Origin: Escherichia phage ECO340P1
Length of the DNA stretch: 64,000 nucleotides
Sequence record: OP172791
Direction: 5' to 3' (one strand)
This document shows positions 5,004 through 38,992 of this stretch, piece by piece. The notes beneath the pieces are model-generated. The model saw nothing but the letters and a program-made list of their open reading frames with translations, was not told where the DNA came from and did not search any database. Position numbers and translations under genes: made by a program. Each line of letters starts with the position of its first letter. Position 1 is the stretch's first letter.

Positions 5004-5009
5004 GCGGTT

Positions 5010-5225: not shown

Positions 5226-5250
5226 CGTGATAATCTCTCTTCTGTTGTGA

Positions 5251-5306: not shown

Positions 5307-5315
5307 CAATCTTTT

Positions 5316-5543: not shown

Positions 5544-5565
5544 AATCTTTAATCTCTCTGTTTTG

Positions 5566-5624: not shown

Positions 5625-5633
5625 CTGTTTTTA

Positions 5634-5873: not shown

Positions 5874-5897
5874 GATTTTTCTCTCTTTTTCAGTGAG

Positions 5898-5956
5898 GCG
5901 GGAAGTGTTCCCGCTCTCTATGTAATACAGTTTACTCTTTTTATTCGTGCTGTCAA
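5898..5956 (-). promoter_or_regulatory. promoter-hairpin cassette for 5634-5873
   Basis: TTGACA 5951-5956, N16, TAAACT 5929-5934, hairpin 5898-5914. Confidence 0.6.
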
Positions 5957-5962
5957 TGCTTT

Positions 5963-6328: not shown

Positions 6329-6354
6329 GATGATAATCTCTCTTTTTGGTTAGT

Positions 6355-6406
6355 GGGAAGTATTCCCGATAAAAGTTATTATGCTTATACTATCACTCAT
6401 TGTCAA
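6355..6406 (-). promoter_or_regulatory. promoter-hairpin cassette for 5963-6328
   Basis: TTGACA 6401-6406, N17, CATAAT 6378-6383, hairpin GGGAA-GTA-TTCCC. Confidence 0.55.
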
Positions 6407-6425
6407 TAGTATAAGACTAAAACTT

Positions 6426-6605
6426 TTAACGATAATCGTTATAGGCTTTATTGACCTGGCGAATGTAACATTCGAAAGCAAGATCAATGTATTCGTATTC
6501 ACGCACATAATCACCATAGGTCACTACATACATTTTTAAAGTTTCCTCATAAGCCAGGAGGATCGAATCTAAACCTATAATCTCAGTTTTTGCAATGATA
6601 GCCAT
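6426..6605 (-). CDS. small hypothetical protein (59 aa)
   Basis: Unlisted ORF with SD AAAAGG after cassette. Confidence 0.45.
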   Translation of the reverse strand: MAIIAKTEIIGLDSILLAYEETLKMYVVTYGDYVREYEYIDLAFECYIRQVNKAYNDYR

Positions 6606-6625
6606 GATGTTAACCTTTTATTGTT

Positions 6626-6682
6626 GGCGGCACCATTGCCGCCCTACGTGATAAACTATACCAGAAGTTTAAACAGTGTCAA
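6626..6682 (-). promoter_or_regulatory. promoter-hairpin cassette for 6426-6605
   Basis: TTGACA 6677-6682, N16, TATAGT 6655-6660, hairpin 6626-6643. Confidence 0.6.
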
Positions 6683-6688
6683 CCGTTT

Positions 6689-7051
6689 TTATTCGTAAAT
6701 TTTACCGCTTTCGGCCCATACCATAACGCGGCGCATACTATCCCAAGTGTTTTGATCCAGGTTTAATCCGTGCAATTCTTCGGTACTTCCCAGACCAGGT
6801 ACCGCCTTGTTGTAAGTTGCATATAAGCGCCCTTGATACTCATACGCCAGGGTGAGATCCGTTTGAATCATCTTTTTAAGCATAGCATTAAGCATCATAT
6901 TAGCGGCATGTTGATCACGTTTTAGCGGTAACATATCAATAAGGGCGCGATAAGCTGAAACATGAATATCAACCGTTTCACGTGGTAAATTTTTCATCTC
7001 ATCGCGGAAAGATACCAGATTAAACATGATAGTATTGATTTGCTTGCTCAT
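6689..7051 (-). CDS. hypothetical protein (120 aa)
   Basis: Track ORF trimmed to ATG with SD AAAGGG after hairpin. Confidence 0.6.
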   Translation of the reverse strand: MSKQINTIMFNLVSFRDEMKNLPRETVDIHVSAYRALIDMLPLKRDQHAANMMLNAMLKKMIQTDLTLAYEYQGRLYATYNKAVPGLGSTEELHGLNLDQNTWDSMRRVMVWAESGKIYE

Positions 7052-7074
7052 TGTGTTACCCTTTTTTTGTTTTG

Positions 7075-7134
7075 GCGGGGAAGTATTCCGCCGCCCTATG
7101 TGATACATCTTATCAGATTAAAAAACGTTGTCAA
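7075..7134 (-). promoter_or_regulatory. promoter-hairpin cassette for 6689-7051
   Basis: TTGACA 7129-7134, N16, TAAGAT 7107-7112, GC inverted repeat 7075-7096. Confidence 0.6.
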
Positions 7135-7143
7135 GAATATTTT

Positions 7144-7239
7144 TTAGAAAATAATAGCCGCTACTACAACCCAAAATGGAACGGCGAAAATGAGAGCGTT
7201 AATCGTTCCAACCGTCAAGCTATTTTCTTTATTAATCAT
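7144..7239 (-). CDS. small hydrophobic peptide (31 aa)
   Basis: Unlisted ORF with SD AGAGGC after a full cassette. Confidence 0.3.
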   Translation of the reverse strand: MINKENSLTVGTINALIFAVPFWVVVAAIIF

Positions 7240-7268
7240 TGTAAGCCTCTTGCATAATTTCACTATGA

Positions 7269-7325
7269 GCGGCACCATTGCCGCCCTACGTGGTAAATAT
7301 TATGCCAGTGGCGGCGATATGTCAA
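7269..7325 (-). promoter_or_regulatory. promoter-hairpin cassette for 7144-7239
   Basis: TTGACA 7320-7325, N17, TAATAT 7297-7302, hairpin 7269-7284. Confidence 0.55.
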
Positions 7326-7879
7326 AGACTATTTTCAAAGTTTTCTAGTGCGATCCTTTTTTCTTCCTCTGTCGGCTGATAATCAGGAAAAGCATCAACA
7401 CACAACAACGGCGGGATCTCTTCGTACTCTTCCTCTTCCGTTGTCTCCTCGTCTTCCTCCTGGGCTATGGCTGCAATTTTGGCTAATTTTCTTTCGGCTT
7501 GAATCAATTTACCATCAAGTACGTTTTTTGCCATGTTGTAAGCGGTCCAGGTGATGCGCTTACTTTCCAGGGCTTGATCGAGCGCCGCTATCTTGCTGGG
7601 GTATTCATCCAGGACACGAAAAGCCGGATCAATTTTGTACAAAGGATTATCTTTCGCGCCGTCGCTCGCATCTTCCGCACTGGATAAATCAGCGTTACCA
7701 TTTGCCAGCCAGCCAGGGCGCACATAACGCGCTTTTACGTTGCCGTTACTACGTGCTAACCTGTTACCTATTTGCTCACCGCTATATCCCGTGGATTCAT
7801 CGATAAGATGATCGGGAATGATGCGCGGATCATCTGCTTCATGTTTTACCCAAGACTGGATCACATATTCGCGGCCCAT
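7322..7879 (-). CDS. hypothetical protein with acidic C-terminal region (185 aa)
   Basis: ATG 7879 with SD AAGGTGG (track start is GTG); Glu-rich stretch EEDEETTEEEEYEE. Confidence 0.6.
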   Translation of the reverse strand: MGREYVIQSWVKHEADDPRIIPDHLIDESTGYSGEQIGNRLARSNGNVKARYVRPGWLANGNADLSSAEDASDGAKDNPLYKIDPAFRVLDEYPSKIAALDQALESKRITWTAYNMAKNVLDGKLIQAERKLAKIAAIAQEEDEETTEEEEYEEIPPLLCVDAFPDYQPTEEEKRIALENFENSL

Positions 7880-7880
7880 A

Positions 7881-8138
7881 TTAACCACCTTTTTTCAACA
7901 ATTGGCATACTTTGAAAAGACTTGCTGAATCCTTGCAAGGGTAGAAAGATGTACGATAATCACGTACGCCAACCTTGCGGATCTCGATGTTTTCGCATGT
8001 TGTTTGATCAAAGATATTTATTTCATCACGCCCCCTTATATAAACATAGTGGGGATGTATTAACGCATATTTTGCTAATCTGTAAAAAGCGTTATCTTTG
8101 AACGCGATCACGTGACCTTTTAATTTGATGTAAAACAT
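7881..8138 (-). CDS. hypothetical protein (85 aa)
   Basis: ORF with SD AAGGTGG after cassette. Confidence 0.55.
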   Translation of the reverse strand: MFYIKLKGHVIAFKDNAFYRLAKYALIHPHYVYIRGRDEINIFDQTTCENIEIRKVGVRDYRTSFYPCKDSASLFKVCQLLKKGG

Positions 8139-8156
8139 TCTACCACCTTACAAATA

Positions 8157-8212
8157 GCGGGAACTATTCCCGCTTTATGTAACATATTAACAAATTATTC
8201 GTTAATGTCAAG
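8157..8212 (-). promoter_or_regulatory. promoter-hairpin cassette for 7881-8138 and 7322-7879
   Basis: TTGACA 8207-8212, N16, TAATAT 8185-8190, hairpin 8157-8175. Confidence 0.6.
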
Positions 8213-8214
8213 CT

Positions 8215-8487
8215 TTAAAGCAAAAACGCTACATCTTGCGCTTTTAGTGTAGTATCAACCATTTTTGGGCTTTTATAATCAACAAAGCGCGCGGTTTTTT
8301 CAATAGCAAAACCGAGATAATCTTGTTTATTGAATTTACATTCTTTCTTAAATGTTTCCCGCGCCACGGTGATCGCTGCGTCCAGGGATAAACGCCCGTC
8401 AATGTTGATATTTGCGAAAGATCCGCCACCGCTCATAGGTTTACCAGTGGTGCCAGCTACGATCATTGTTGCGCTATATGATGCCAT
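8215..8487 (-). CDS. hypothetical protein (90 aa)
   Basis: Track ORF trimmed to ATG after hairpin and SD AGAGAG. Confidence 0.55.
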   Translation of the reverse strand: MASYSATMIVAGTTGKPMSGGGSFANINIDGRLSLDAAITVARETFKKECKFNKQDYLGFAIEKTARFVDYKSPKMVDTTLKAQDVAFLL

Positions 8488-8509
8488 GATGATAATCTCT
8501 CTGTTGTGA

Positions 8510-8570
8510 GCGGCTGGACCATTCCGCCGCCCTATGTGGTACATCTTATCAGGTTGTTGTTTGTTGTCAA
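8510..8570 (-). promoter_or_regulatory. promoter-hairpin cassette for 8215-8487
   Basis: TTGACA 8565-8570, N16, TAAGAT 8543-8548, GC inverted repeat 8510-8530. Confidence 0.6.
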
Positions 8571-8576
8571 TACTTT

Positions 8577-8774
8577 TTATTCTATTCCTGCAATTTGATT
8601 AACGCGCTTGCATTTTGTAGCGTGCTGGTCTTCTGTAATGACTCCCATTTCTAACAGGGAATCAATGAAAGATAAAACCGTTTCATGATCATCCTGGGGA
8701 TGACTGAACTCAGTAAAACCGTTTACTATTACGTTGATTTGTCCAGCTTTCGCCACAATATGCAATGTTGCCAT
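8577..8774 (-). CDS. hypothetical protein (65 aa; start uncertain, may extend to 8903)
   Basis: ATG 8774 with SD GGAG; long GC-rich leader upstream. Confidence 0.45.
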   Translation of the reverse strand: MATLHIVAKAGQINVIVNGFTEFSHPQDDHETVLSFIDSLLEMGVITEDQHATKCKRVNQIAGIE

Positions 8775-8908
8775 GATCTTAACTCCAGGTGATAAATGAT
8801 GTTTTTTGTTGGTGGACGGTGGATTATGGAGATCCTCACCTTTGCCCGTCCTGCATTGCGCCCTCCTGTTGTTTATTGTCGTTGTGCCGCGCCCCCTCGA
8901 CAAGATGA

Positions 8909-8937
8909 ATACTACGCTACCAGGTGAGGAACGTCAA
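8909..8937 (-). promoter_or_regulatory. sigma70-type promoter for 8577-8774 with long GC-rich leader
   Basis: TTGACG 8932-8937, N17, TAGTAT 8909-8914; ~130 nt leader holds a 6-codon uORF at 8836-8856. Confidence 0.5.
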
Positions 8938-8954
8938 CCACTTTTTCAATCTTT

Positions 8955-8981
8955 TTTATTTTCTTTTTGCTTGCTATATAT
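8955..8981 (+). promoter_or_regulatory. extended -10 promoter for 9047-9313
   Basis: TGcTATATA at 8972-8980; GC hairpin GCGCC-N6-GGCGC 9008-9025 in leader. Confidence 0.35.
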
Positions 8982-9046
8982 AAAGGAAAGGGCTATCATC
9001 TTTCTACCGCGCCAACCAGGGCGCACAACAAAGAAAGGGCGACACC

Positions 9047-9313
9047 ATGACAAATACTACATTACACCTTATGCACTCATTGGGCTGGCAAGGCGGCACG
9101 GTGCACCAGGTAGCAAGCGCAACGGGCTTAAAGGTTGAAACAGTTCTCAACCTGGGCGATCATAAGGTGGAAGAGATAGATCATTTTGATACGTTCGCAA
9201 ATGGTTATCTATGGGCTTGCAGTGGCGGCGGGGAAAGCAAGATACCACCAGGGGCGCGGGGCGATATGTATTTTTGGTTAGGTGTCCTATCCTGGCAAGA
9301 AAACAAAAAATAA
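9047..9313 (+). CDS. hypothetical protein (88 aa)
   Basis: ORF with SD AAAGGG; extended -10 promoter and GC hairpin upstream. Confidence 0.5.
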   Translation: MTNTTLHLMHSLGWQGGTVHQVASATGLKVETVLNLGDHKVEEIDHFDTFANGYLWACSGGGESKIPPGARGDMYFWLGVLSWQENKK

Positions 9314-9314
9314 T

Positions 9315-9343
9315 CTTGACAAGCCCAGGGATCGGGCTTATAC
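9315..9343 (+). promoter_or_regulatory. strong sigma70-type promoter reading into non-coding region
   Basis: TTGACA 9315-9320, N17, TATACT 9338-9343; spacer is itself a dyad AGCCC..GGGCT. Confidence 0.6.
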
Positions 9344-9559
9344 TGTTTTACATACAGAAGAGGAAGCGCCACCCCACGGCGTAAAGGCGGGGCTAACATA
9401 CCAGGGGGCACTGGTTGGAAGGTTGATCGCCGGTAGGCTGGGCGCTATATATTTGTAAAGAAATGTAAAGATAAAATAATCGCTTGCTTTCCTGGCTGGA
9501 TCTGTTATTCTTATTACATGGCGAGGGGACACGGGAGCGCGAGACAAACACCGCCCCTG

Positions 9560-9945
9560 CGCGTCATTCTCTAAATGAGAATGATTATCATTTACCTTAT
9601 CAAATAAGAATCAATCTCATTTATAAACCTAAATGCGAATCATTATCATTTGCATTTCCATATGAGAACTCTTCTCATTCTCATCTGCATAAATTTTTGT
9701 AAACTTTAAATTTTGCTTTTGTACTTTCATTTTTGTAAAAGCAAAAAAACTTTAAATACTGTGGGCGCGCAAAATTTTTAAAATTTTCCTTGACTTTTGA
9801 GTTTTGTTTTGTATCTGACATTTTAAGATAATTTTCCTAAACTTTAAATTTTGGTTTTCAACTTTCACTTTTGTAAATTCTTAAAAAGTTTAAATAATTT
9901 GAGGGATTTTTGAGATAATAGGTAATGGGAATTTGAGATAACCTT
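9560..9945. repeat. AT-rich non-coding region with direct repeats (candidate replication origin)
   Basis: ~42 bp direct repeat at 9698-9741 and 9837-9880; ATGAGAATGATTATCATTT-like repeats at 9575-9685; TTTGAGATAA twice at 9909-9941. Confidence 0.45.
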
Positions 9946-10038
9946 TAATCTTATTGGCAGACCTTCAGGAACCCACTCAGATCGAATCCTAGTGATGCAA
10001 ACTGAAAAAGATAAGTGTTTGTATAAGACAAAATAACA

Positions 10039-10070
10039 GGCTCTCTACGGTGCTGTAGGAGCCTTATTTC
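10039..10070. terminator. bidirectional rho-independent terminator
   Basis: GGCTC..GAGCC stem with T-runs on both strands; ends leftward operon after NADAR gene. Confidence 0.55.
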
Positions 10071-10119
10071 TGTGCTACAAAGTGACACCTTTGTTCTAAA
10101 AATGAAAAAAGTTAAAATA

Positions 10120-10662
10120 TCACAAATATCGTCTTTGCGGTATTTTGTCTGGGAAAAGTATTTCGATCAGTTTGTTATGATATTTGCCTAAAAGATTCTG
10201 CCCTTTCCAGGTGGCAGGGTTTAGCACCCCTGGTTCATACATCCCCATTCCAATTCCGTAAACCTTATCGTAGGGGCTTGCTTCAACAAACGTTTTGTAT
10301 TGGTAAAGGTGTAAGTCTGCATACAAATCTGGATTCTGTACATATTTCAAGCATAAACCTCGCATAACAATACGCTCACGGTTCTCTTCCCATACGTTGT
10401 TATCAAAATCCGACACTGCCCTACCCATACGTTTGTAATAAGCTTGTTTCCTCTCGTTGTCACGTATAGTCGAGTGATCAAGGATAGCTGCTGCAATCGC
10501 ATGATCCTTGAACAGCAAAGCCTTACGCCACATCATATATTGCTCAACACAACAGAAAGTCTCATTGTAACCTGGTTCGGTTTCTGTAAAGGGTGCAATA
10601 TACCAATTACTAAAAACATCTTTATGTGAAAAGAAGAATACATAATCATCCGTTATTCGCAT
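10120..10662 (-). CDS. NADAR (DUF1768, YbiA-like) domain protein
   Basis: Motifs FSNW, CVEQYMMWRKALLF, MGR, SPYDKVYGIGMG, WKGQNLLG align with NADAR family pattern. Confidence 0.8.
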   Translation of the reverse strand: MRITDDYVFFFSHKDVFSNWYIAPFTETEPGYNETFCCVEQYMMWRKALLFKDHAIAAAILDHSTIRDNERKQAYYKRMGRAVSDFDNNVWEENRERIVMRGLCLKYVQNPDLYADLHLYQYKTFVEASPYDKVYGIGMGMYEPGVLNPATWKGQNLLGKYHNKLIEILFPDKIPQRRYL

Positions 10663-10837
10663 TTTTCACACTCTCCAAAATTTCACGTTGCCCTTTCTGA
10701 TAGGCTTTCATCAGGACCACTTTAAGGTTTGTCTCCAAAAGATCTTCATTGTAGTTATACCGCTCCACAACATATGTCAATTCATCATAAAGATCAAGAA
10801 CGGGGTAGAATACAGGGTTATCTGCTAAACGTGCCAT
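10646..10837 (-). CDS. hypothetical protein (63 aa)
   Basis: ATG 10837 with SD AAAGGAGAAA; first ATG at 10873 lies inside upstream gene. Confidence 0.45.
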   Translation of the reverse strand: MARLADNPVFYPVLDLYDELTYVVERYNYNEDLLETNLKVVLMKAYQKGQREILESVKNANNG

Positions 10838-10850
10838 AGTTTCTCCTTTG

Positions 10851-11216
10851 TTAATCCATCCACCAGTAGCCATAAACTGCGTCTGCGTCGATGAGTTTGT
10901 GTTTGTTGTTCCGCATGTAGTCTAAGATAAGTAGACGTTTATTGTATCTGGAGAGATTATGACCCTCTTTTCCGCCATAGTCAAAATATTTTGCAAGATC
11001 TTTGCACTCAAACAAAATTAGTTCAGGAGTTTCTTCACACTGGTCTGTCTGGTACACTTGACGAATGATCATGTATACATCGTCGTCTTCCGCTAAATGC
11101 TCTACTGGTCCACATCCAGCAGGAACAAATTCATAGTCCCATCGAATCAGATGTTTCTCTACTGCTTCAAAGAAATCCATCCTTTCGTTGCGCATAATTT
11201 GAACGTCAACTAACAT
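10851..11216 (-). CDS. hypothetical protein (121 aa)
   Basis: ORF with SD ACAGGAGAAAA. Confidence 0.55.
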   Translation of the reverse strand: MLVDVQIMRNERMDFFEAVEKHLIRWDYEFVPAGCGPVEHLAEDDDVYMIIRQVYQTDQCEETPELILFECKDLAKYFDYGGKEGHNLSRYNKRLLILDYMRNNKHKLIDADAVYGYWWMD

Positions 11217-12412
11217 GTTTTCTCCTGTAATGTTCCACCATAAAGTTTATAAATGTTTTGTATTGAGGCCATGCAAGATAACTCTACTGTTTCTGTGTAG
11301 CCATCTGGCATAGCATATTTGCTCACTGCTTCCGTGTGAAGGACACGCTTACAACGCTTCTCTGCATCTTTGCATTGCTTCACAGTAGGGAAGTGCCACA
11401 CTTGGACCTGTTTCATAGTAAACACATTACGACTATTTTGTTTTTTGATACGGCGATCACTATTATTGGCAATTCCAAATTTCAAAGCACAGAGAATACC
11501 TTGTTCATCATGAATGTGGTTAATGTAACATTGTTGTTGTGTCTGGTTAGCACATTGCGGACAACCAGTGCCATGATTTAACAAACCACTGGCACGTCCT
11601 ATTTGTACCCCATGTTTCTTACATCCATATTTAAACTTACCTAATCTTACAGACGGTTTCCCGATCCAACCTACCCAGATATACCCTTTCCTTTCTACTG
11701 CCTTTTTTACCCTATAGGTAATCTGTGCTTCTGTGTAATGACAATTAGTTGCACAACGGCAAGGAATCTTCCCTTGTTTAAGGTCATTCCCTGCGACATA
11801 AAACTTACCATCACACACCCCAGCTTGCACATACTCATCGTGAGAGCAGGCAGGACACTCTACACACCATAAAGAATCGCGGCCTCGTTTTTTATCTGTT
11901 TTAGTGAAGATTGTACCCTCTTTAAACTTTCCTGTATTAATGAAGTCTTGTATGTGCTGATCGTCTGGAAGTATTTTAGAATTCCTAGATCTTTTGTTAC
12001 CGCATTTAGGACAACCACTACCACCCTTAAGATTATGAAATGTTAATGTTCGCCATTCCCCGTGCTCAGGACAAAGGTTGATCATCTTTGTATGTACACC
12101 TATAAACTCTCCATTAATGCCTAAAATCTTGATTCCCTTAGCTTCAGCAATAGGTTTACATTCCGAAAGGTAATAATCTAGGTTTTTACTGTTGTCTTGT
12201 CTTGCTTTCTCATTTTTGCACCTAGGGCAACCAGACTTACCACGTTTAAAATTGGCAAATGTGGATGTTCTCCACTCCCCATGATTAGGGCAGAAGTTGA
12301 TCATCTTCGTGTGCACACCTTTAAATGGCTCTACAATCCCTATAATCTCATATCCTTTAGCTTCCGCTATTGGTTTACATTCTCCTATATACTGTTCTAA
12401 CGTCTTCGCCAT
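11210..12412 (-). CDS. Cys-rich protein with duplicated Zn-ribbon modules, possible homing-endonuclease-like
   Basis: Two repeats ECKPIAEAKG...CPxHGEWRT...GCPxC; C-terminal KFGIANNSDRR resembles T5orf172/GIY-YIG-like motif. Confidence 0.5.
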   Translation of the reverse strand: MAKTLEQYIGECKPIAEAKGYEIIGIVEPFKGVHTKMINFCPNHGEWRTSTFANFKRGKSGCPRCKNEKARQDNSKNLDYYLSECKPIAEAKGIKILGINGEFIGVHTKMINLCPEHGEWRTLTFHNLKGGSGCPKCGNKRSRNSKILPDDQHIQDFINTGKFKEGTIFTKTDKKRGRDSLWCVECPACSHDEYVQAGVCDGKFYVAGNDLKQGKIPCRCATNCHYTEAQITYRVKKAVERKGYIWVGWIGKPSVRLGKFKYGCKKHGVQIGRASGLLNHGTGCPQCANQTQQQCYINHIHDEQGILCALKFGIANNSDRRIKKQNSRNVFTMKQVQVWHFPTVKQCKDAEKRCKRVLHTEAVSKYAMPDGYTETVELSCMASIQNIYKLYGGTLQEKTC

Positions 12413-12456
12413 CTTTATCTATCCTCTCTCCCTATAAGTCTGAAGTCAATATAACA

Positions 12457-12476
12457 AAACCCGCCGAAGCGGGTTT
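12457..12476. terminator. terminator hairpin (internal to leftward operon)
   Basis: AAACCCGC-CGAA-GCGGGTTT followed by T-rich sequence on both strands. Confidence 0.55.
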
Positions 12477-12492
12477 AGTTATTTGTGCTGTA

Positions 12493-13632
12493 TCAGAACA
12501 CGCTACCCAGTGTAGTGGAACGTTGTGTTACAGGCTCCAGCACCACTCGCAGAGTGTTTCCTGGTGTAGTGCTCATCACCAGAATCTTACCACCTTCAAT
12601 CAGATCACAAGTTAGACCATCAGCAGTTGCACACAGATCAATATGTGGATCGCCATCTTCATCCAGGATAACATAACTGTTGGTTTCCATTGCTTCCACT
12701 TCATCATCTTTCAAACTTTGTAGATAGATGTTCAGGGAACAAGCACCCGACAAAAACTTAGTAGGGGTGAAGTCGTGCCAGTTATTGATCCAATTCACCT
12801 TCAAGGTTTTGCCATTAGCTACGATAGAAGCCACATTCCATTTAGCATCGTTCCCTAAAGAAATACCCATCATTTCAAGACATTCTTTAAAAGTCATTTT
12901 TGGATAGAAATTCAATTCTTCTACAATGCCTTGAATAACATCGAAAGACAACTCTGTGCTAACATCCCATAAACGTTGGAAGTTATCTACGTGCTTTTTA
13001 TTTACCAAGTTCTTATCCAAGTAATCTAACATAGTTTCACTAGATAGTTTATCGTAATTGAAACTGTAGTAGATACGACTAGGACGGTTTACAAAATATT
13101 CCGAGATATAGCCACTATTTTTAGTGAGGATGTAAAGTTTATTCCCACTTCCTGTTCCATCCAACAAGGTCAACAGTGCTTCCTGATCTTCTTTCTTAGC
13201 GTACACTTTATCAAATTCGTCAAATAAAACAACAGCACGATCTGTAATTTTACTCATAAATTCTAAGAAGCCAGCATCTGTGTAAGGCTGTGTAACCAAA
13301 ATGGTTGGAATACCTAAACCTTCTGTGGACATTAGAGACATGCTAATCAGTTTAGCTAACATCGTCTTACCACTGCCCTTTGTCCCTGTCAGTAACACCC
13401 CAGTATTTTTACCTTCTTTACTACGACGAGCAAATGTTTTAATAACATGTGCGGCGCGGTCTTTAGTTTCCCCATAAAGAGTGTTCGGAAGAGAGAAACT
13501 TTCGCCACGCACTAAAGAGTAGTTACCGTGCGGATCGCAGTTGACAACCCAAACTCCAGCAGGAAGTTTATTAGCTTCAACACCATATTCCTTATTTACA
13601 ACAGCCACATCTCCAAAAATAGTGTATTTCAT
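12493..13632 (-). CDS. AAA+ ATPase
   Basis: Walker A GTKGSGKT and Walker B VVLFDEFD; unknown C-terminal domain. Confidence 0.65.
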   Translation of the reverse strand: MKYTIFGDVAVVNKEYGVEANKLPAGVWVVNCDPHGNYSLVRGESFSLPNTLYGETKDRAAHVIKTFARRSKEGKNTGVLLTGTKGSGKTMLAKLISMSLMSTEGLGIPTILVTQPYTDAGFLEFMSKITDRAVVLFDEFDKVYAKKEDQEALLTLLDGTGSGNKLYILTKNSGYISEYFVNRPSRIYYSFNYDKLSSETMLDYLDKNLVNKKHVDNFQRLWDVSTELSFDVIQGIVEELNFYPKMTFKECLEMMGISLGNDAKWNVASIVANGKTLKVNWINNWHDFTPTKFLSGACSLNIYLQSLKDDEVEAMETNSYVILDEDGDPHIDLCATADGLTCDLIEGGKILVMSTTPGNTLRVVLEPVTQRSTTLGSVF

Positions 13633-28496: not shown

Positions 28497-29102
28497 ATGC
28501 AACATAGTGTAGTAGTCAACATGCCGAATAGTGGGGATAAATCTTTTGGTGTCCCTGCTAAAAAAGTGTGGAAAGCCCATTTTCATCTTACTTTATCTAA
28601 CGTTAGTTCTGAAGAGTTGATGAAAGCAGCTAAGATTATTGGTGCCAAATGCACAACAATTGATTTACATCGGGATACAAAGTCTCAACGTGATCGTATG
28701 TTAACAAAGTATCAAAGCGATCTCGACACTACTTTAATGTTGCAGTGTGTAGAAAAACTTGAGAATGCAGGTTTCAATGTTGTTCGTTACAAACTGGAAC
28801 GAATGTTTAAACATGTTGCCTGTGTTCTTTTCATGGATCTAAGTAAAGAAAATTACGGAGAAGTTCACATTAAGACTTCAGCAAGTGATCCCGAAGTAGA
28901 AACAAACTTCTTCCGTATTTCTTCTAATGCTGAAGAAGTTGATTACCGATTTTATAATGCTCGCTTATATTCCGCAGAAGATAAGTTGCGTTTCAATGAA
29001 GCGTATGATATGCTCTTGAACAGTGGGATACAGATAAAAGGCTACCACATAGAACAAGTGGTAGTGGACAGTAATCTTAACTTAGACGCATGGTGGGCTT
29101 AA
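28497..29102 (+). CDS. hypothetical protein (201 aa)
   Basis: ORF with SD GAGGAGA; first gene of Ter-like module. Confidence 0.55.
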   Translation: MQHSVVVNMPNSGDKSFGVPAKKVWKAHFHLTLSNVSSEELMKAAKIIGAKCTTIDLHRDTKSQRDRMLTKYQSDLDTTLMLQCVEKLENAGFNVVRYKLERMFKHVACVLFMDLSKENYGEVHIKTSASDPEVETNFFRISSNAEEVDYRFYNARLYSAEDKLRFNEAYDMLLNSGIQIKGYHIEQVVVDSNLNLDAWWA

Positions 29103-29103: not shown

Positions 29104-29760
29104 ATGACTATTAAACATATCTCTTTTGATGTATGGAACACACTGATCACAGCAAACTCCAATTACGCAGACATGCGAGCCTGGACTATCGCAAAATATG
29201 GAGATATTACGGAAGTGGAAGCAAGAGCAGCTTATAAAAAGATCAAAAAGGAACTGGATAATGCAGCACTTCAAGGCAAAGCCGAGTGTGCAGCATACGC
29301 CTGGGAAAGACTTGGTTCTGAACTTGGGATAACACCTTGGAAGTCTGCAAAGCTTCGTTTCGAGTGTGAACAGTGGTTCCTTAAGTTTCCACCACACGTA
29401 GCCGTGGATCTGCCGATGTACTTGTTGTATCTTTCGGGGCGTTATGATTTGAGTATTAAGAGTAATACCAACTTCATATCAGGGGATATCCTGCGTCGTG
29501 CTTGTAAGTTTGATAGTTGGAATTGTTTTGAGTTCACCCATTTCTCGGATGAAGCTTTACTTTGTAAACCAGATCCGCGATTCTTTGCTCGCACGCTCAC
29601 GTATTCTCCGATCCCTCTGTTAGGGCACGAAGTATTGCACGTAGGAGATAGTGAAGAATATGATGGGAAATGTGTTGACTTAGGATTTAACTTCTGTCAT
29701 ATTAAGAACCCTAACGACTTACTAGAGAAACTTAAAAGAGGAGAAATTGTAAATGCGTAA
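29104..29760 (+). CDS. HAD-superfamily hydrolase-like protein
   Basis: N-terminal ISFDVWNTL (HAD motif I variant) and C-terminal LHVGDSEEYDGKCVDLG. Confidence 0.6.
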   Translation: MTIKHISFDVWNTLITANSNYADMRAWTIAKYGDITEVEARAAYKKIKKELDNAALQGKAECAAYAWERLGSELGITPWKSAKLRFECEQWFLKFPPHVAVDLPMYLLYLSGRYDLSIKSNTNFISGDILRRACKFDSWNCFEFTHFSDEALLCKPDPRFFARTLTYSPIPLLGHEVLHVGDSEEYDGKCVDLGFNFCHIKNPNDLLEKLKRGEIVNA

Positions 29761-30580
29761 TCAAACTCAAATTTTTGCAAATAAATTTGATGACCTGGAA
29801 GCTGCTACTTTTGATATCCAAGATTATTCAAAATTGAAATTTGGTAGTAACCAAGCTGCGCGTCGTATGGGTAAAGAATTGGCACTTCAGTTTTTTGCTC
29901 AAGTGGCAATGAAACATATTGGGGAACAATTTGTTATCATTCCTTCTCCTTACAACCATGTGCATAATGCTGCAACAATGATGACAGATCATTTTATTAA
30001 TTACTTTAATATGTTGCAATCACAATATGATCAAGGTCGTTCAGCAGAACTGGATATTATTCATCGTAAAGTTAGCTATATCAACGATTATGGTTTCTTG
30101 GATAAAGCTAGTCGTAAGAAACTTATTGATGGGGATACATTCTACTGCAACAAAGAATTCTGGGGTGATAAGAAGCTTGTGTTTATTGATGATGTAAATA
30201 TCACTGGAACTCATGAAGACAAACTGATTGAGATCCTTGATGAAAATCAAGTTAAAAATGATGTTTACTTCCTGTATTTTGCAAAATATGAAGGTAATCA
30301 AGCAGATACCGAAGCTAAACTGAATTTTAACTACATTAATACACCGGAAGCGTTTGTTAAAATGATTAATGAAGAACGTGATGCACAGTGTCTTGTTCGT
30401 CCTATTAAGTATCTTATGGGCCAAAATCATGAAGACTTCAAAATCATTCTTAGCCAATTGCCACATTACTATGTAGAGCAACTTTTCTTTGGATGCTTGG
30501 GAGAAGGTTACAACCGAATTTCAAAGTATGCTGAAAACTTTGAATTCTTGGATCGTTACACAAAACAACACATTCTGTAA
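29753..30580 (+). CDS. phosphoribosyltransferase (PRTase type I fold) protein
   Basis: PRPP-binding signature KLVFIDDVNITGTHE. Confidence 0.65.
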   Translation: MRNQTQIFANKFDDLEAATFDIQDYSKLKFGSNQAARRMGKELALQFFAQVAMKHIGEQFVIIPSPYNHVHNAATMMTDHFINYFNMLQSQYDQGRSAELDIIHRKVSYINDYGFLDKASRKKLIDGDTFYCNKEFWGDKKLVFIDDVNITGTHEDKLIEILDENQVKNDVYFLYFAKYEGNQADTEAKLNFNYINTPEAFVKMINEERDAQCLVRPIKYLMGQNHEDFKIILSQLPHYYVEQLFFGCLGEGYNRISKYAENFEFLDRYTKQHIL

Positions 30581-30593
30581 TAAGGAGCTAAAA

Positions 30594-31067
30594 ATGCTTA
30601 AAATGAAAACAGGTAATCTTATTGATGCCGCTAAAGCAGGTGAAGTAACTGTTATTGCTCATTGTTGCAACTGTATGTGTAATATGGGGGCAGGTATTGC
30701 CCCACAAATCAAACAAGCATTTCCTTACGCATATGCAGCAGACTTAGACACAATGGCTGGTGATCAAAGTAAACTAGGTTGTTTTAGTTTAGGGGTGCCA
30801 GACGAACAATCAGACCCTTTGGTATATAATCTATACGGGCAATACCGTTACGGATACAATGCTAAAGGTCGTCAGTTGGACTATGATGCACTTTACGATG
30901 CACTAATAGCTATGGCTAACGATTTGCTTCTCCGTGACCAAAAATGTAAGATCGGCTTACCTATGATTGGCGCTGGATATGCTGGAGGTAATTGGGCTAT
31001 CATCCAAGTGATGATTGAAGAAACTTTAGTAAAAACAGGTCACGATGTGACTATTTATAAACTTTAA
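30594..31067 (+). CDS. macro domain (ADP-ribose binding/processing) protein
   Basis: ATG 30594 with SD TAAGGAG; motifs VIAHCCNCMCNMGAGIA and LPMIGAGYAGGNW. Confidence 0.6.
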   Translation: MLKMKTGNLIDAAKAGEVTVIAHCCNCMCNMGAGIAPQIKQAFPYAYAADLDTMAGDQSKLGCFSLGVPDEQSDPLVYNLYGQYRYGYNAKGRQLDYDALYDALIAMANDLLLRDQKCKIGLPMIGAGYAGGNWAIIQVMIEETLVKTGHDVTIYKL

Positions 31068-31079
31068 GAGGAGATTAGT

Positions 31080-31301
31080 ATGGGTGTTTTTGCAGGTATT
31101 GTTGCAGTGGTAAGCTTTTTTGTTATTGCTTTTATGCTTAGTTTGATTCCAGCTTGGTTACTGTTGCTGGCTTACAACTATGTTGCTGAAGTTATGGGTC
31201 ATGCAGATATCACTGTCCCAGTAACCTTCTGGACCGTGGTTTGTGTTTCGTTTATTCTGGCTGTATTACGAGGAATCTTTTCCTCTCATTCAACAAAATA
31301 A
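31080..31301 (+). CDS. small membrane protein (73 aa)
   Basis: SD AAGAGGAG; two predicted transmembrane segments. Confidence 0.5.
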   Translation: MGVFAGIVAVVSFFVIAFMLSLIPAWLLLLAYNYVAEVMGHADITVPVTFWTVVCVSFILAVLRGIFSSHSTK

Positions 31302-31304
31302 GTG

Positions 31305-31363
31305 TTGACATAGTTCTTAAAAAGAGTAAGATATATCACATGAAGCGGGGAATAGTTCCCCGC
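31305..31363 (+). promoter_or_regulatory. promoter-hairpin cassette (plus-strand copy) for TerC gene
   Basis: TTGACA 31305-31310, N16, TAAGAT 31327-31332, hairpin GCGGGGAA-TAG-TTCCCCGC 31345-31363, then SD GAGAGGAGAAAAG. Confidence 0.6.
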
Positions 31364-31380
31364 AAAGAGAGGAGAAAAGA

Positions 31381-32355
31381 ATGCAACTTGGTTTCCCAAT
31401 TATTGATGTAGTTGTTTTAGTTGGTATTTTAGCATTGTCTATTGGTATTGATTTCTTTGGTCACAAAGAAAATAAAGAAATTTCATTCAAATCCGCAGTT
31501 GGTTGGTCGATCTTTTGGATTGGTGTATCATTAGCTTATTATGGTTTTGTATACTTCCAACATGGTGCCGATTTTGCTAACTTGTTTTTAAGTGGATATG
31601 TGTTGGAAAAATCTTTGTCGGTAGATAACTTGGTAGTATTTGTAGCAGTATTCGCAAGTTTTGGTATTAAAAGCACACACTTGCAGCACAAAATTCTACT
31701 TTGGGGTATTGCAGGTGCGATTGTCTTCCGAGGTGTGTTTGTAGCAGTAGGCACTTACTTGTTAAGTTTGGGCTGGTATGTTAATATCTTCTTCGGTGCG
31801 GTCATCCTTTTCTGTGCAGCTAAAATGGTATTTGCTGGAGATAATGACGCAGAAGTTGATTACTCTAAACACTGGGCTACCCGTATTGTTCGTAAACTGT
31901 TCCCTGTATCTAATAAAATGGATGGGGAGAAGTTCTTCACAATCGAAAATGGTGTTCGTGTAGCAACTCCAGCTTTGGTTTGCGTATTCGTGATGGAAAT
32001 GGTTGATGTAATCTTTGCAGTAGATTCTGTTCCGGCAGTGATCGCAGTAACACAAGAACCTCTGCTTGTATTCTCTTCGATGTTATGTGCAATCTTAGGT
32101 CTACGTGCTCTGTTCTTTGTTCTTAGTGTTGCACTGAAGTATCTGGTTCACTTGGAGAAAGCAGTTATTGTGGTTCTGGTGTTTGTAGGTGTTAAACTAA
32201 TGTATCACCCGTTTGCAGAAACGTTACATGAAAAAATGAGCTTCCTGCCAGCGCACATTGATCCAACTATTAGTATGTATATTGTCCTGGGCACATTAGC
32301 TCTTGGTGTTATTGCAAGCTTTATCTTCCCTGAAAAAGAAGAAGCTACTGTTTAA
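31381..32355 (+). CDS. TerC-family integral membrane protein
   Basis: Multiple TM segments; motifs VLEKSLSVDNLVVF and EMVDVIFAVDSVPAVIAV; own promoter-hairpin cassette; terminator downstream. Confidence 0.8.
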   Translation: MQLGFPIIDVVVLVGILALSIGIDFFGHKENKEISFKSAVGWSIFWIGVSLAYYGFVYFQHGADFANLFLSGYVLEKSLSVDNLVVFVAVFASFGIKSTHLQHKILLWGIAGAIVFRGVFVAVGTYLLSLGWYVNIFFGAVILFCAAKMVFAGDNDAEVDYSKHWATRIVRKLFPVSNKMDGEKFFTIENGVRVATPALVCVFVMEMVDVIFAVDSVPAVIAVTQEPLLVFSSMLCAILGLRALFFVLSVALKYLVHLEKAVIVVLVFVGVKLMYHPFAETLHEKMSFLPAHIDPTISMYIVLGTLALGVIASFIFPEKEEATV

Positions 32356-32361: not shown

Positions 32362-32386
32362 AGCCTCCTTCGGGAGGCTATTTTAT
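32362..32386 (+). terminator. rho-independent terminator after TerC gene
   Basis: AGCCTCC-TTCG-GGAGGCT followed by ATTTTAT. Confidence 0.7.
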
Positions 32387-33980: not shown

Positions 33981-34571
33981 ATGCATACCGAGAGAGACTT
34001 GCAACTCTTGTGGTGGGAAGTGATGCAGGAAATAAAAGAAGATTTTCCTGTTTACTACAACATGTTACGTGAAGCAGGATATAAAGCTTGTGTTAGAAAC
34101 AAAGTGAATAACTCTTTCGGTTGGTGCAACTACCGAGATAAAATTGTTGTTGTAAATTGGCACTTGCATAAGAACTCCACAAGAGATATGATCGTGGATA
34201 CAATGAAGCACGAAATTGCTCATGCTATTGATGGTTGTATGGGTAAGTTTAGTAGGCACGGTGCTCATTGGCAAAAACTGGCAGCAGAATTAGGGGCTAA
34301 TCCTAAAGCCACTTCCAAAGAGCCGTTGAACCACGAATATAAATATGTTCTTGTTCTGGTAGATAGGTTTGCGACAAGATGTGTTAGAGGTTATAATCGT
34401 AAACCTAATCGCATGTACCCAGGTAAGCAACCTAATATGTGGTTGAAATCAGATAAAGAAGGGACCGAAGGAAAATTATGGTTGTATAAATGGGACGATT
34501 GGGTTAAAGTAGCTAAAGAGTACGGTGTTTCACCATATATAAGAGATGCAGAAGAGGAGAATGAAGAATGA
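33981..34571 (+). CDS. SprT-like zinc metallopeptidase domain protein
   Basis: HExxH motif in context MKHEIAHAIDG. Confidence 0.6.
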   Translation: MHTERDLQLLWWEVMQEIKEDFPVYYNMLREAGYKACVRNKVNNSFGWCNYRDKIVVVNWHLHKNSTRDMIVDTMKHEIAHAIDGCMGKFSRHGAHWQKLAAELGANPKATSKEPLNHEYKYVLVLVDRFATRCVRGYNRKPNRMYPGKQPNMWLKSDKEGTEGKLWLYKWDDWVKVAKEYGVSPYIRDAEEENEE

Positions 34572-35680
34572 CAAGTCCATTTTTAAAAGCAGCTACTGGT
34601 GGTCAGAAGAAGCCTGAAATGAGCGTATTTGCTGCAACAACAGATGCAAGTAAATCTGTATTCGCTCCAAGCGTGTTAGATGCCAGTCCTGTTTATGCAC
34701 CAGCGGCACCGCAAGAAGTTCCAGTTTTGCCTTCTATGACCCGACAAGAGATTGAAGAGATTGGGGCAGAGGCAGGAACAACCTTGCGTTCCTTGAATGC
34801 CGAGGTGTTAAAACATCAACGTAGTAATCAAGGCGATCAGATGAGTGAACGACTCACAGCTTTGATTAAACAGGCAAAACAACTTGATCCAAACTCTATT
34901 AAACAAAGCAAGGGTATTACTAAACTCATTAAAAAAGTTATGGGTATGAAAGAAGACCTGTTCGGGGAGTTTGATAATGTTAATAACCGTATTGAAGAGT
35001 TGGTAAAGAACCTTCAAATGGATATTCGCAAAGAAGAAGATTCCTTGGTATATCTTGAAAAGCTGCATCAAGCTATTGGACAATATGCTGCAAGTTTGAA
35101 CCGAGATATGCAGCTTCTAACAGCAACCTATGAAAAAGAAGAACAAGCTTTGGCTGCTCTTCCAGAAGATGCAGTAGAACAGCGACAAGTGATCCGAGAT
35201 ACTTTGGATCTTCTGGAGATTCGTATTGCAGATTTAAAAGCATTGCGCCTACTGTGTGTCCAAATGGGACCGCGTGTACAAGGTATGCAAAAAGTTTCTG
35301 CAAGCTTAATGCGATCTGCGCGTAACATAGTAAATAATGTTATTCCTGCTTACTCTGCTAACTTCTCAATGTATATCGAGAGCTTACGTCAAATGAAAGC
35401 AGCAGAGACGCAGAATAACGTTCTTGATGAATTTAACCTGGCAATTAAACTGGGTAGCGATCTTGCCACACAGAATCAGATCGAAGCAGCAGCACTGGCT
35501 AACCGTCAAGTGTTGGATATTGAAACTCTGCGTCACGATCAGGAAAACTTGGTTAAGATGCTGGAAGAAACTAACCGCATCAATACGGAAGCCCGTGCTG
35601 CTCGTGTTGATTATATTAATGAAGTTCAATCTCTGGAAGACGGGATGGTAGCTGCTGTGAAACGAGGGCTTGGTAAATGA
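34568..35680 (+). CDS. coiled-coil protein, TelA/KlaA-like (tentative)
   Basis: Long helical Leu/Glu/Gln-rich protein; family assignment is from memory of TelA pattern and genomic context. Confidence 0.55.
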   Translation: MTSPFLKAATGGQKKPEMSVFAATTDASKSVFAPSVLDASPVYAPAAPQEVPVLPSMTRQEIEEIGAEAGTTLRSLNAEVLKHQRSNQGDQMSERLTALIKQAKQLDPNSIKQSKGITKLIKKVMGMKEDLFGEFDNVNNRIEELVKNLQMDIRKEEDSLVYLEKLHQAIGQYAASLNRDMQLLTATYEKEEQALAALPEDAVEQRQVIRDTLDLLEIRIADLKALRLLCVQMGPRVQGMQKVSASLMRSARNIVNNVIPAYSANFSMYIESLRQMKAAETQNNVLDEFNLAIKLGSDLATQNQIEAAALANRQVLDIETLRHDQENLVKMLEETNRINTEARAARVDYINEVQSLEDGMVAAVKRGLGK

Positions 35681-37084: not shown

Positions 37085-37879
37085 ATGTCCGAGAAAATCA
37101 GCCTGAAAAAACGTCAAGAAAACCTTGCTTTCTCTCTGAAAAAGAATAAGAACCTGAATGAAGGTAAGATTGTTCTTCGTGTAGCATGTGCTCTAGATAT
37201 TTCTGGTAGTATGCATGGTCTATATTCTAGTGGGGTAGTGAGTGATTTTGTAGGTAAACTGCTTCCTTTTGGTATGCTGTTCGACGATAATCAACAAATT
37301 GATATGTGGGCCTTCAATACGAGTTCCCAAGAGCTTACTCCAGCAACAGCAGACGTTTACGATGACTATGTTGGTAAATGTATGCGTAATGTTCGTATCG
37401 GAGGTGGAACAAATTACGCCCCTGTAATGGCAGATATCTACGATGAGTATTTTGGCACTGTTACCAAATATATTACCACTAAACAAGTGGTACAAGAGGA
37501 GGCTCCAAAGAAAGGCTTCTTTAATCGTCTGCTTGGTAAAACTGAAACAGTGTCTGTAGAGCGTGAAAAAGTTGTAGCTGTATCTGAACCAGGTGCTGAC
37601 GTTACCCCTGGTGTTGTATTCTTCCAGACGGATGGTGAGAATGGTGATCCTAGTGCTGTTCGTCGTCTTATTGAAGAGAATAAGAATAAACCTATTTATT
37701 GGTTCATGGTTGGCGTTGGTAATGAGAAGTTTGGGTTCCTGAAAGAACTGGCAAATGCTTATGATAATGTTGGTTTTATTGGCATTAAAGATTTAGACTT
37801 GACAGATTCAGAGCTTTATGACAAACTCTTATCTGAGGAGTTCGGAGAGTGGGTTGTTAAAGTAGGTGCTAAAAAATGA
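37085..37879 (+). CDS. von Willebrand factor type A (vWA) domain protein, TerY-like
   Basis: MIDAS motif LDISGSMHG, GGTNYAP, FFQTDGENGD; N-terminal KISLKK repeat like TerD N-terminus. Confidence 0.7.
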   Translation: MSEKISLKKRQENLAFSLKKNKNLNEGKIVLRVACALDISGSMHGLYSSGVVSDFVGKLLPFGMLFDDNQQIDMWAFNTSSQELTPATADVYDDYVGKCMRNVRIGGGTNYAPVMADIYDEYFGTVTKYITTKQVVQEEAPKKGFFNRLLGKTETVSVEREKVVAVSEPGADVTPGVVFFQTDGENGDPSAVRRLIEENKNKPIYWFMVGVGNEKFGFLKELANAYDNVGFIGIKDLDLTDSELYDKLLSEEFGEWVVKVGAKK

Positions 37880-38389: not shown

Positions 38390-38992
38390 ATGACTGATAA
38401 AATTTCCCTGAAAAAAGGCTCTAGCGAAAAAATTTCCCTGAAGAAAGTTGCTCCGGCTCTGAAAGAACTGCGCCTGGAATTCTCTTGGAAATCTGATTCT
38501 AAACTGGATCTGGATGTAAGTGCACTGGTTTGTCGTCACAATGCCGCTGGTAATCCTGAAATGCTGTCTGCACGTCATCTGGTTTGCTATGCTAACAAGT
38601 TTGATCCTGAACGTTCTACCTTCGCTGGTGACGATGTTCGTGATGGAACTGGCAGCATGGAGCAGATTGATATTACTCTGGCTAAAATCTCTCCTGATGC
38701 ACAAGAGATTGCCTTTGTTCTGACCATTGATGATGATACAGGTCTGAAACGTTTTGGTCATGCTTCTGAAGGTATGCTTAAAATCTTCGACTCCGAGCGC
38801 AATGTGGAAATTCTGGATTTTGACTTCCTGGCTCCTGAAGTAGCTGGCAACACAATCTGCCACGTGGCTTCCTTGGTTCGTGAAGATGGGGAATGGAAGC
38901 TGAAAGCATATGGTGTAGGTAAAGCTGGTCTGGATATTTGTGATGTGGTGATGGCCTTCGGTGGTAAAAAAGAATGGTATGAATGTCCATAA
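38390..38992 (+). CDS. TerD-domain protein
   Basis: N-terminal KISLKKGSSEKISLKK, DLDVSALV, acidic-loop GDDVRDGTGSMEQIDI, C-terminal WKLKAYGVG match TerD family pattern. Confidence 0.8.
   Translation: MTDKISLKKGSSEKISLKKVAPALKELRLEFSWKSDSKLDLDVSALVCRHNAAGNPEMLSARHLVCYANKFDPERSTFAGDDVRDGTGSMEQIDITLAKISPDAQEIAFVLTIDDDTGLKRFGHASEGMLKIFDSERNVEILDFDFLAPEVAGNTICHVASLVREDGEWKLKAYGVGKAGLDICDVVMAFGGKKEWYECP

Follow-up and report, generated by a model that had tools for sequence, protein, structure and literature searches.

The gene at 30594..31067 of a 64,000-nt stretch of DNA from Escherichia phage ECO340P1 (sequence record OP172791; the whole stretch is called the window here) encodes a protein that is a stand-alone macrodomain of the ALC1-like class, the class of TARG1, DarG, SCO6735 and Poa1p, and a member of the phage Tk.4/AdfM/Adpp family. 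It is likely that the protein, whatever its substrate, works by catalysis as a counter-defence ADP-ribose hydrolase of the Tk.4 family. As to the substrate and the biological role, which we infer from the fold, the family membership, the conservation of the active site and the context statistics, the reading that is tentatively favoured is that of an independent enzyme that may reverse DarT2-type thymidine-linked ADP-ribosylation of DNA, by analogy with the role of AdfM. The functions of the family were published in 2025-2026, and the window gene is a further member of a recognised counter-defence family.

Fold, class and active site

A macro domain protein had been proposed at this position in an earlier note on the same DNA, and the call was borne out by profile searches and by structure prediction. 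The Pfam Macro profile (PF01661) was passed marginally, with 22.4 bits against a cut-off of 22.0 and an E value of 1.3e-4, and the domain call is therefore carried by other evidence. The protein matched PHROG 335 strongly (E 1.2e-53). When the single sequence was searched against the PDB with phmmer, SCO6735 was the best match (3.5e-12) and BT1257, TARG1 and DarG were matched as well; a profile of 69 family sequences gave E values of 4e-21 for BT1257, 3e-19 for SCO6735, 9e-18 for TARG1, 2e-10 for DarG and 9e-10 for Poa1p. The earlier note had made its call depend on the outcome of structure prediction, and a three-layer alpha/beta/alpha macro fold was predicted by AlphaFold2 from the 69-sequence alignment with a predicted local distance difference test score (pLDDT) of 95.1 and a predicted template modelling score of 0.91; a model computed from the single sequence was discarded as unusable (pLDDT 40). 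In a Foldseek comparison of the alignment-based model with the PDB the top match was TARG1 (4j5s) with an E value of 7e-12 and template modelling (TM) scores of 0.80/0.89, followed by BT1257 and DarG. A total of 240 PDB matches was obtained at E <= 0.001, and all 50 of the top-ranked matches listed were macrodomains. Of the two Gly-rich loops, which in macrodomains hold the diphosphate of ADP-ribose, MGAGIA (residues 31-36) has its counterpart in MGAGIA of TARG1, and IGAGYAGG (residues 125-132) in IGCGLDRL.

An identity as DarG antitoxin was considered and rejected. The PADLOC model of DarG was matched with its macro part only (E 4e-10; positions 1-144 of the 329 in the profile), the NCBIfam model of DarG gave 35.2 bits at a cut-off of 250, and darT is not adjacent to the macrodomain gene, whose direct neighbours encode a PRTase_3 protein and a 73-aa membrane protein.

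Mapping of the catalytic residues, which had been suggested in the earlier note along with the profile search, places the protein outside the TARG1 type. The catalytic Lys/Asp dyad of TARG1 (K84, D125) is replaced by Gln83 and Ala130. In sets of 44 and 69 homologues Gln83 was either fully conserved or found in 90% or more of the sequences, and across both sets His23, Asn26, Gly34, Gly126, Gly128 and Gly132 were invariant. Residues 49-62 form a family-specific motif, ADxxTxxGDxxKLG, in which D50, T53, G56, K60 and G62 are invariant. In a HMMER alignment with the family profile the mobile loop that follows Gln83 is 6 residues longer than that of TARG1; the SCO6735 subtype likewise has a loop that exceeds those of TARG1 and DarG by about 5 residues. 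Because the alignment of Gln83, the longer loop and the conserved residues match the arrangement of SCO6735, the protein is, as judged from its aligned residues, a Gln-type, SCO6735-like member of the ALC1 class and not a Lys-type enzyme such as TARG1 or DarG. In SCO6735, Gln85 was found by structural superposition to be the equivalent of TARG1 Lys84 and DarG Lys80, the exchanges Q85A and N27S abolished and G128E impaired the hydrolysis of thymidine-linked ADP-ribose on DNA, the longer mobile loop was proposed as an aid to DNA binding, and cells exposed to DarT were rescued by the protein (PMC9411070).

Homology and conservation lead us to expect hydrolysis at C1'' by a Gln/Asn/backbone-water arrangement. 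ADP-ribose would be held in the cleft between the two Gly-rich loops, and the group attached at C1'' of the distal ribose would be cleaved off. In place of a catalytic lysine, Asn26 would hold Gln83, Gln83 would position the distal ribose in the manner of SCO6735, and a backbone-bound water would act in catalysis. Cys24 sits where the SCO6735 subtype has Val (or Ile) 25, the backbone holder of the catalytic water; since the role proposed for this residue is a backbone contact, the side chain of Cys24 may not matter.

The Tk.4 family and the proposed function

Relatives of the protein were found by tblastn in 2,979 phage records, among them T4-like, Felix O1-like, Vi1-like and rV5-like phages, Pakpunavirus and many others. 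T4 Tk.4, which also belongs to PHROG 335, shares 36% identity with it over 124 aa (E 1e-20), is likewise a stand-alone protein (about 155 aa), has Gln at the position of the catalytic lysine and carries the ADxxTxxGDxxKLG signature; it differs in that its mobile loop is about 8 residues shorter and its gene sits among the tk/vs early genes, not beside Ter or PRTase genes. Tk.4 was named AdfM after transposon sequencing, in which it was required on DarTG2 hosts only (HIDEN-SEQ preprint, bioRxiv 10.1101/2025.11.20.689424). The closest studied relative is Adpp of Vibrio phage Gary, with 40% identity over the full length (E 4e-34), an equivalent His (H24 versus H23), the NxYGQY motif, the Gly loops and the C-terminal DVTI(F/Y)KL. 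The adpp gene lies between those of Adps and Namat and feeds both, whereas the window phage has neither. RES-domain NAD+ phosphorylases produce ADP-ribose-1''-phosphate (ADPR-1''P). Adpp turns this compound into ADP-ribose, from which the NARP1 pathway then rebuilds NAD+; the conversion was observed in vitro, and the variant H24A was without activity against aRES defence (bioRxiv 10.64898/2026.01.28.702374).

SCO6735 of Streptomyces coelicolor (PDB 5E3B) shares His24, Asn27, Gln85, Gly128 and the long mobile loop, and hydrolyses thymidine-linked ADP-ribose on DNA without a catalytic lysine (PMC9411070). It differs in being encoded by a bacterial chromosomal gene with a DNA-damage promoter, in having Val25 instead of Cys24, and in a surface that its paper describes as highly electropositive, whereas the net charge of the window protein is -3. 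DarG of DarTG2 systems (Thermus aquaticus, 5M31/5M3E; Mycobacterium tuberculosis, 5M3I) was matched by Foldseek with an E value of 5e-10 and a TM score of 0.80, but has a catalytic Lys80 where the window protein has Gln, a C-terminal DarT-binding domain and an adjacent darT. By its description, gp104 of phage PhiKZ, also named AdfM, is a stand-alone phage macrodomain that clears DarT2 marks from DNA, as was observed in vitro, and protects the phage, its Asn mutant losing function; unlike the window protein it is Lys-type (N23/K78), and it is imported into the phage nucleus (PMC13309987). Human TARG1/OARD1 and yeast Poa1p were both matched, TARG1 as the top structural match, at sequence identities of 20-28%. 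AdfB of phage ICP1 is not a relative, being a 77-aa DarT binder without a macrodomain.

On the comparison of these sequences, a single orthologous family carries two published functions, AdfM and Adpp, and sequence alone cannot choose between them. The AdfM role is favoured for three reasons. Firstly, the window phage resembles T4 in that it has an orphan macrodomain gene, an orphan NADAR gene and no pathway for the reconstitution of NAD+. Searches by tblastn for Adps, Namat, NAMPT, PRPP synthetase (PRS; PRPP, 5-phosphoribosyl 1-pyrophosphate) and NMNAT found none of them in the window and none in the remaining genome of phage Mt1B1_P17, which is 99.3% identical to the window across 4 kb; NARP1 or NARP2 genes were found nowhere in this 99%-identical genome, and T4 is likewise without NARP1. 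The NARP3 pathway (PnuC and NadR) was also checked and is unrelated. Secondly, the Gln-type enzyme SCO6735 performs the hydrolysis of thymidine-linked ADP-ribose, and thirdly, Adpp is useful only where Adps and Namat take up its product. The likely substrate would thus be ADP-ribosyl-thymidine laid by DarT2-type toxins on single-stranded phage DNA, and the enzyme would act alone as a counter-defence factor, not as a step in the chemistry of the neighbouring HAD and PRTase_3 proteins. NADARs of the type encoded by the window phage are AdfN anti-DarTG1 factors in T4-like phages; with this NADAR gene in addition to the macrodomain gene, the phage may carry erasers of both guanine- and thymine-linked ADP-ribose on DNA, the NADAR protein complementing the macrodomain enzyme by handling the guanine-linked form. 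In GenBank the NADAR-domain gene is named 'GTP cyclohydrolase II / COG3236'.

Several points weigh against the AdfM role. Adpp, at 40% identity over the full length, is closer to the window protein than T4 Tk.4 at 36% over 124 aa. The evidence for T4 AdfM is genetic and comes from a preprint (bioRxiv 10.1101/2025.11.20.689424), the biochemically tested AdfM of PhiKZ is of the Lys type (PMC13309987), and a literature search found no experimental paper on any macrodomain from Phapecoctavirus or Stephanstirmvirinae. The C-terminal DarT-binding domain of DarG antitoxins is missing from the 157-aa protein. In a neighbour-joining tree without support values the NARP1-associated macrodomains were scattered and polyphyletic, intermixed with orphan ones, and T4 Tk.4 grouped with a NARP1-associated macrodomain from Acinetobacter; because of this mixture the substrate is not assignable by sequence. 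The net charge of -3 does not point to DNA binding either, yet it does not discriminate, since T4 Tk.4 has -2 (Gary Adpp, +1); net charge and isoelectric point were dropped as uninformative about whether the substrate is DNA or a small molecule.

The main rival is a role like that of Adpp, because Adpp is the closer relative and because both activities could share one enzyme. The protein would then be an ADP-ribose-1''-phosphate phosphatase directed against RES-domain NAD+ phosphorylases, which detoxifies ADPR-1''P or returns ADP-ribose to metabolism, and the same protein could hold a DNA-directed activity as well. Such a role appears rather unlikely here, but it is the best of the alternatives. 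It is consistent with the invariance of His23, the equivalent of the essential His of Adpp, with the match of the family profile to Poa1p, and with the occurrence of aRES systems in E. coli (bioRxiv 10.64898/2026.01.28.702374). The window protein shares 40-47% identity with NARP1-associated macrodomains in Table S1 of the same preprint, for example those of Pseudomonas phages VCM and PAK_P1.

The gene neighbourhoods of macrodomain relatives bear on both roles. Two genes on each side of the macrodomain gene were collected from 38 non-redundant viral loci, and among the 150 neighbour proteins the commonest Pfam families were NAPRTase/NAMPT (8), NADAR (7) and HAD_SAK_2 (5); domains of the PRPP synthetase, SLOG and T4 gp30.3 types were also present. 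The direct NADAR neighbours in other lineages speak for the AdfM role, as does the match to the macro part of the PADLOC DarG model. NAMPT- or PRS-type genes occurred within 8 kb of the macrodomain gene in 17 of 39 loci, with two layouts. In one of them NUDIX, NAMPT, NADAR, macrodomain, HAD_SAK_2, SIR2 and PRS genes follow each other, and in the other a pair of Adps-like and Namat-like genes lies beside or near the macrodomain gene (7 of the 39 non-redundant loci), which speaks for a role like that of Adpp. Against a role like that of Adpp stands the fact that Adpp works by supplying Adps and Namat: since these two, NAMPT and NMNAT were not found in the phage, dephosphorylation alone would not rebuild NAD+. 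Furthermore, Table S1 of the preprint holds no 'Escherichia', 'Klebsiella' or 'Salmonella' entries among its NARP1-associated macrodomains (bioRxiv 10.64898/2026.01.28.702374).

It is improbable that the protein is instead an eraser of ADP-ribose on protein or RNA, which would reverse an attack by a host ADP-ribosyltransferase (ART), CmdT-like or other, or tune the ADP-ribosylation carried out by the phage itself. SCO6735 and TARG1, which are the nearest homologues of solved structure, also hydrolyse Glu/Asp-linked ADP-ribose on proteins (PMC9411070), erasers of RNA-linked ADP-ribose from the ALC1-like class are described in the literature, and a Sir2-family protein is encoded elsewhere in the phage genome, as seen in Mt1B1_P17, which also encodes a DprA-like SLOG protein. 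However, such a role has been shown for no phage relative, an ART gene was not seen in the window, and it is genes of NAD+ salvage and of NADAR proteins that are enriched in the neighbourhoods described above, whereas ART genes are not.

Relation to the HAD-PRTase_3 pair and the Ter genes

The Ter-like module in which the earlier note had placed the gene is real, with E values of 2.3e-41 for PRTase_3, 9.9e-39 for TerC, 3.2e-33 for TelA, 1.6e-37 for the vWA-TerF-like protein and 3.2e-28 for TerD. The same note had offered two functions, the processing of a ribose-phosphate product of the PRTase-HAD pair or an independent removal of ADP-ribose. The second is the alternative favoured by the evidence, and the first is not supported. 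Studied relatives act on ADP-ribose-1''-phosphate or are linked genetically to DNA-linked ADP-ribose, and the relative that does lie beside PRTase-type enzymes, in NARP1, feeds them their substrate and does not process their product.

A partnership with the HAD-PRTase_3 pair, in which the macrodomain would process the product of the pair or supply ADP-ribose to it as an analogue of NARP1-AP, was nevertheless considered in view of the gene arrangement. The HAD and PRTase genes overlap by 8 nt, the PRTase and macrodomain genes are separated by 13 nt, and no terminator-like site was seen on the + strand until the GC hairpin directly after TerC. The tight local packing and the absence of a terminator-like site up to this point suggest co-transcription. 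The order HAD, PRTase_3, macrodomain, 73-aa protein, TerC and TelA, with further genes on either side of TerC, is kept in phi92, Klebsiella phage KP13-26 and metagenomic relatives, and it holds while the identity of the macrodomain falls to 49-53% across Phapecoctavirus, phi92-like and Klebsiella relatives. In addition, Otagovirus phages have another module of the phosphoribosyl type, Adps and Namat, in the slot of the pair.

These observations are outweighed by the distribution of the genes. A HAD-PRTase_3 pair within 8 kb of a macrodomain relative was found in 5 of the 80 viral loci and in GenBank relatives, all of them Stephanstirmvirinae; because all cases lie in one collinear subfamily, the adjacency counts as a single evolutionary event. 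Two sister lineages (L019, L024) have kept the macrodomain and Ter genes without the pair. Conversely, no macrodomain, TerC or TelA gene was found within 6-8 kb of the overlapping HAD-PRTase pair in any of the four outside lineages examined, namely Xanthomonas phage XaC1, Rhizobium phage RHph_TM2_3B, Brevundimonas phage Kikimora and one Fibrobacterota metagenome-assembled genome (MAG). PRTase_3 occurs in 156 phage records, compared to 2,979 for the macrodomain family. In KP13-26 and one metagenomic contig (L013) an extra gene for a 184-187-aa protein separates the PRTase and macrodomain genes. The macrodomain gene and the pair are thus doubly dissociated, and their adjacency looks like a neighbourhood peculiar to one lineage and not like a shared pathway. 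When bacterial genomes were scanned for PRTase_3, the hits were confined to the phage itself (in a MAG) and a single locus from Fibrobacterota, so that the sample contained no bacterial Ter operons. The former (JAEZZU010000022.1) is filed as a 'Proteobacteria bacterium' MAG, and its PRTase is 99% identical to that of the window; almost certainly this contig is phage DNA that ended up in a bacterial bin.

The chemistry of the pair argues in the same way. Macrodomains bind the ADP part of ADP-ribose. The compound that a type I PRTase would make together with a HAD enzyme, a base-riboside or its phosphate, would lack this part. No kinase equivalent to Adps is present, and PRTase_3 has neither a relative of solved structure nor an established substrate: a PRTase_3 profile searched against the PDB matched nothing beyond the PRPP loop of HPRT (E 0.4) and gave no clue to the base, and a literature search on PF15610/PRTase_3 found nothing. 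The HAD gene lies under the Pfam threshold, yet its HAD motifs are conserved, with the nucleophile Asp and the Ser, Lys and Asp residues of motifs II, III and IV invariant among the homologues. Motif I (residues 9-13) reads D-V-W-N-T in 7 of 7 phage or MAG homologues, and the Asp+2 general acid that is typical of HAD phosphatases is replaced by Trp in all of them. The enzyme may therefore differ from classical phosphatases, so that even its role as a phosphatase is uncertain. Among the neighbours of the pair in the Rhizobium, Xanthomonas and Brevundimonas phages, nothing was recognised beyond a Nudix domain, a DUF2828/DUF7788 protein and a lysozyme; Pfam did not support the label 'NMN adenylyltransferase' that GenBank gives for the Rhizobium phage. 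As summarised in PMC7824862, the Ter-system module of PRTase and HAD (Anantharaman et al. 2012) is described without a macrodomain among its components. Taken with the distribution, a role of the macrodomain as partner of the pair is decidedly improbable.

A related and broader possibility, also improbable, is that HAD, PRTase_3 and macrodomain form an uncharacterised pathway centred on ADP-ribose and NAD+, in which the macrodomain would supply a new type I phosphoribosyltransferase with ADP-ribose stemming from ADPR-1''P or from ADP-ribosylated DNA. It is conceivable because NARP1 occupies the parallel slot in Otagovirus, directly 5' of the macrodomain gene and the TelA/vWA-TerF/TerC/TerD block. 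In Otagovirus M5.1 and one contig (L031) the order is Adps, Namat, macrodomain, SLOG, TelA, vWA-TerF, TerC and TerD; the block extends over 3112..12597 in the Pseudomonas phage M5.1 locus (L099) and over 3856..13631 in the contig, and combines an NARP1-AP-type set with a complete small Ter module.

A non-catalytic sponge that sequesters immune signals derived from ADP-ribose is very unlikely, even though macrodomains bind ADP-ribose derivatives tightly and phages deploy sponges against Thoeris signals, since every residue on which catalysis depends in SCO6735 and Adpp is invariant or nearly so in the family, and both studied phage relatives depend on catalysis: function is lost in Adpp H24A and in the Asn mutant of PhiKZ.

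The gene, its phage and implications

The source phage, a phAPEC8-like myophage of E. coli, belongs to Phapecoctavirus in the subfamily Stephanstirmvirinae. The coordinates of the gene, its active-site codons and the surrounding features are compiled below.

Features of the macrodomain locus in the window
Feature	Coordinates	Strand	Remarks
Macrodomain gene, phage Tk.4/AdfM/Adpp family	30594..31067	+	157 aa and stop; ATG at 30594, stop codon ends at 31067
Codons His23-Cys24-Cys25-Asn26	30660..30671	+	Equivalent to SCO6735 His24-Val25-Cys26-Asn27; His23 equivalent to Adpp His24
Codon Gln83	30840..30842	+	Position of SCO6735 Gln85, TARG1 Lys84 and DarG Lys80; long mobile loop (84-95) next
Gly-rich diphosphate-binding loop G126-A-G-Y-A-G-G132	30969..30989	+	Ala130 at the position of TARG1 Asp125
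Ribosome-binding site AAGGAG	30582..30587	+	Read from the sequence; ATG 6 nt further on
HAD-fold gene, context	29104..29760	+	Overlaps PRTase start; motif I DVWNT
PRTase_3 (PF15610) gene, context	29753..30580	+	Ends 13 nt ahead of the macrodomain ATG
73-aa hydrophobic open reading frame, context	31080..31301	+	Starts 12 nt past the macrodomain stop
TerC-family membrane protein gene, context	31381..32355	+	Pfam
Terminator-like GC hairpin with T-rich tail, after TerC	32362..32379	+	First such + strand site downstream of 28497
TelA gene, context	34568..35680	+
vWA-TerF-like gene, context	37085..37879	+
TerD gene, context	38390..38992	+
NADAR-domain gene, 180 aa	10120..10662	-	Pfam 1.8e-35; about 20 kb from the macrodomain gene, opposite strand

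A longer version of the open reading frame (192 aa, starting with TTG at 30489) was rejected, as it overlaps the PRTase gene and is used neither by homologues nor by GenBank annotators. Existing GenBank labels for the gene are 'macro domain protein' or 'putative phosphatase, Macro_Poa1p_like', and the phi92 record names its counterpart a 'potential Tk.4-like' phosphatase. The annotation as macrodomain is correct and, because GenBank records already carry it, the observation is not new. The counterpart in phi92 (L005, 7851..8567) is annotated with 238 aa, including an N-terminal extension of about 89 aa without Pfam match; a close phi92 relative (L021) supports a protein of 149 aa, and the annotated start in phi92 may thus lie too far upstream.

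Between the window phage and phi92 the identity is 49% for the macrodomain, 49% for HAD, 65% for PRTase and 95% for TerC. As the divergence over 29104..32355 is mosaic, recombination or a fast evolution of the enzyme genes is suggested. The 73-aa hydrophobic open reading frame adjoins the macrodomain gene also in lineages without HAD-PRTase (L027-L029, 38% identity), so that the pair of macrodomain and small membrane protein is more persistent than that of PRTase and macrodomain. Just 5' of TerC, a promoter-like site (TTGACA, 16 nt, TAAGAT) was seen at 31305..31332 (+), and with the strong hairpin terminator just after the gene, TerC may also be transcribed alone. Just 5' of the HAD, PRTase and macrodomain genes, a 201-aa protein encoded at 28497..29102 (+) matched two PADLOC 'AbiEi' antitoxin models at near full length (E 3.6e-13 and 3.1e-12) and had no match in Pfam, NCBIfam or the PDB. 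It is kept in KP13-26 (74%) and several metagenomic relatives, tblastn found none in phi92, and the gene may be an orphan antitoxin-like counter-defence gene.

The analysis provides a candidate function for a gene that is conserved in phAPEC8-like and phi92-like phages of E. coli and Klebsiella, which are therapeutic candidates; should it act against DarTG2 or aRES, the gene would help to predict the hosts that such phages can infect. The phage macrodomain family has been assigned two functions, AdfM and Adpp, by two laboratories, and these can be told apart neither by clade in the sequence tree nor by net charge. The parallel order of phosphoribosyl module, macrodomain and Ter genes in two unrelated phage groups is a lead on the chemistry of PRTase_3 and HAD. 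The chance that the HAD-PRTase_3 pair belongs to the conflict over NAD+ and ADP-ribose is slight; if the pathway centred on NAD+ did exist, it would tie the enzymes of the 'Ter nucleoside-like metabolite' to the NAD+ arms race.

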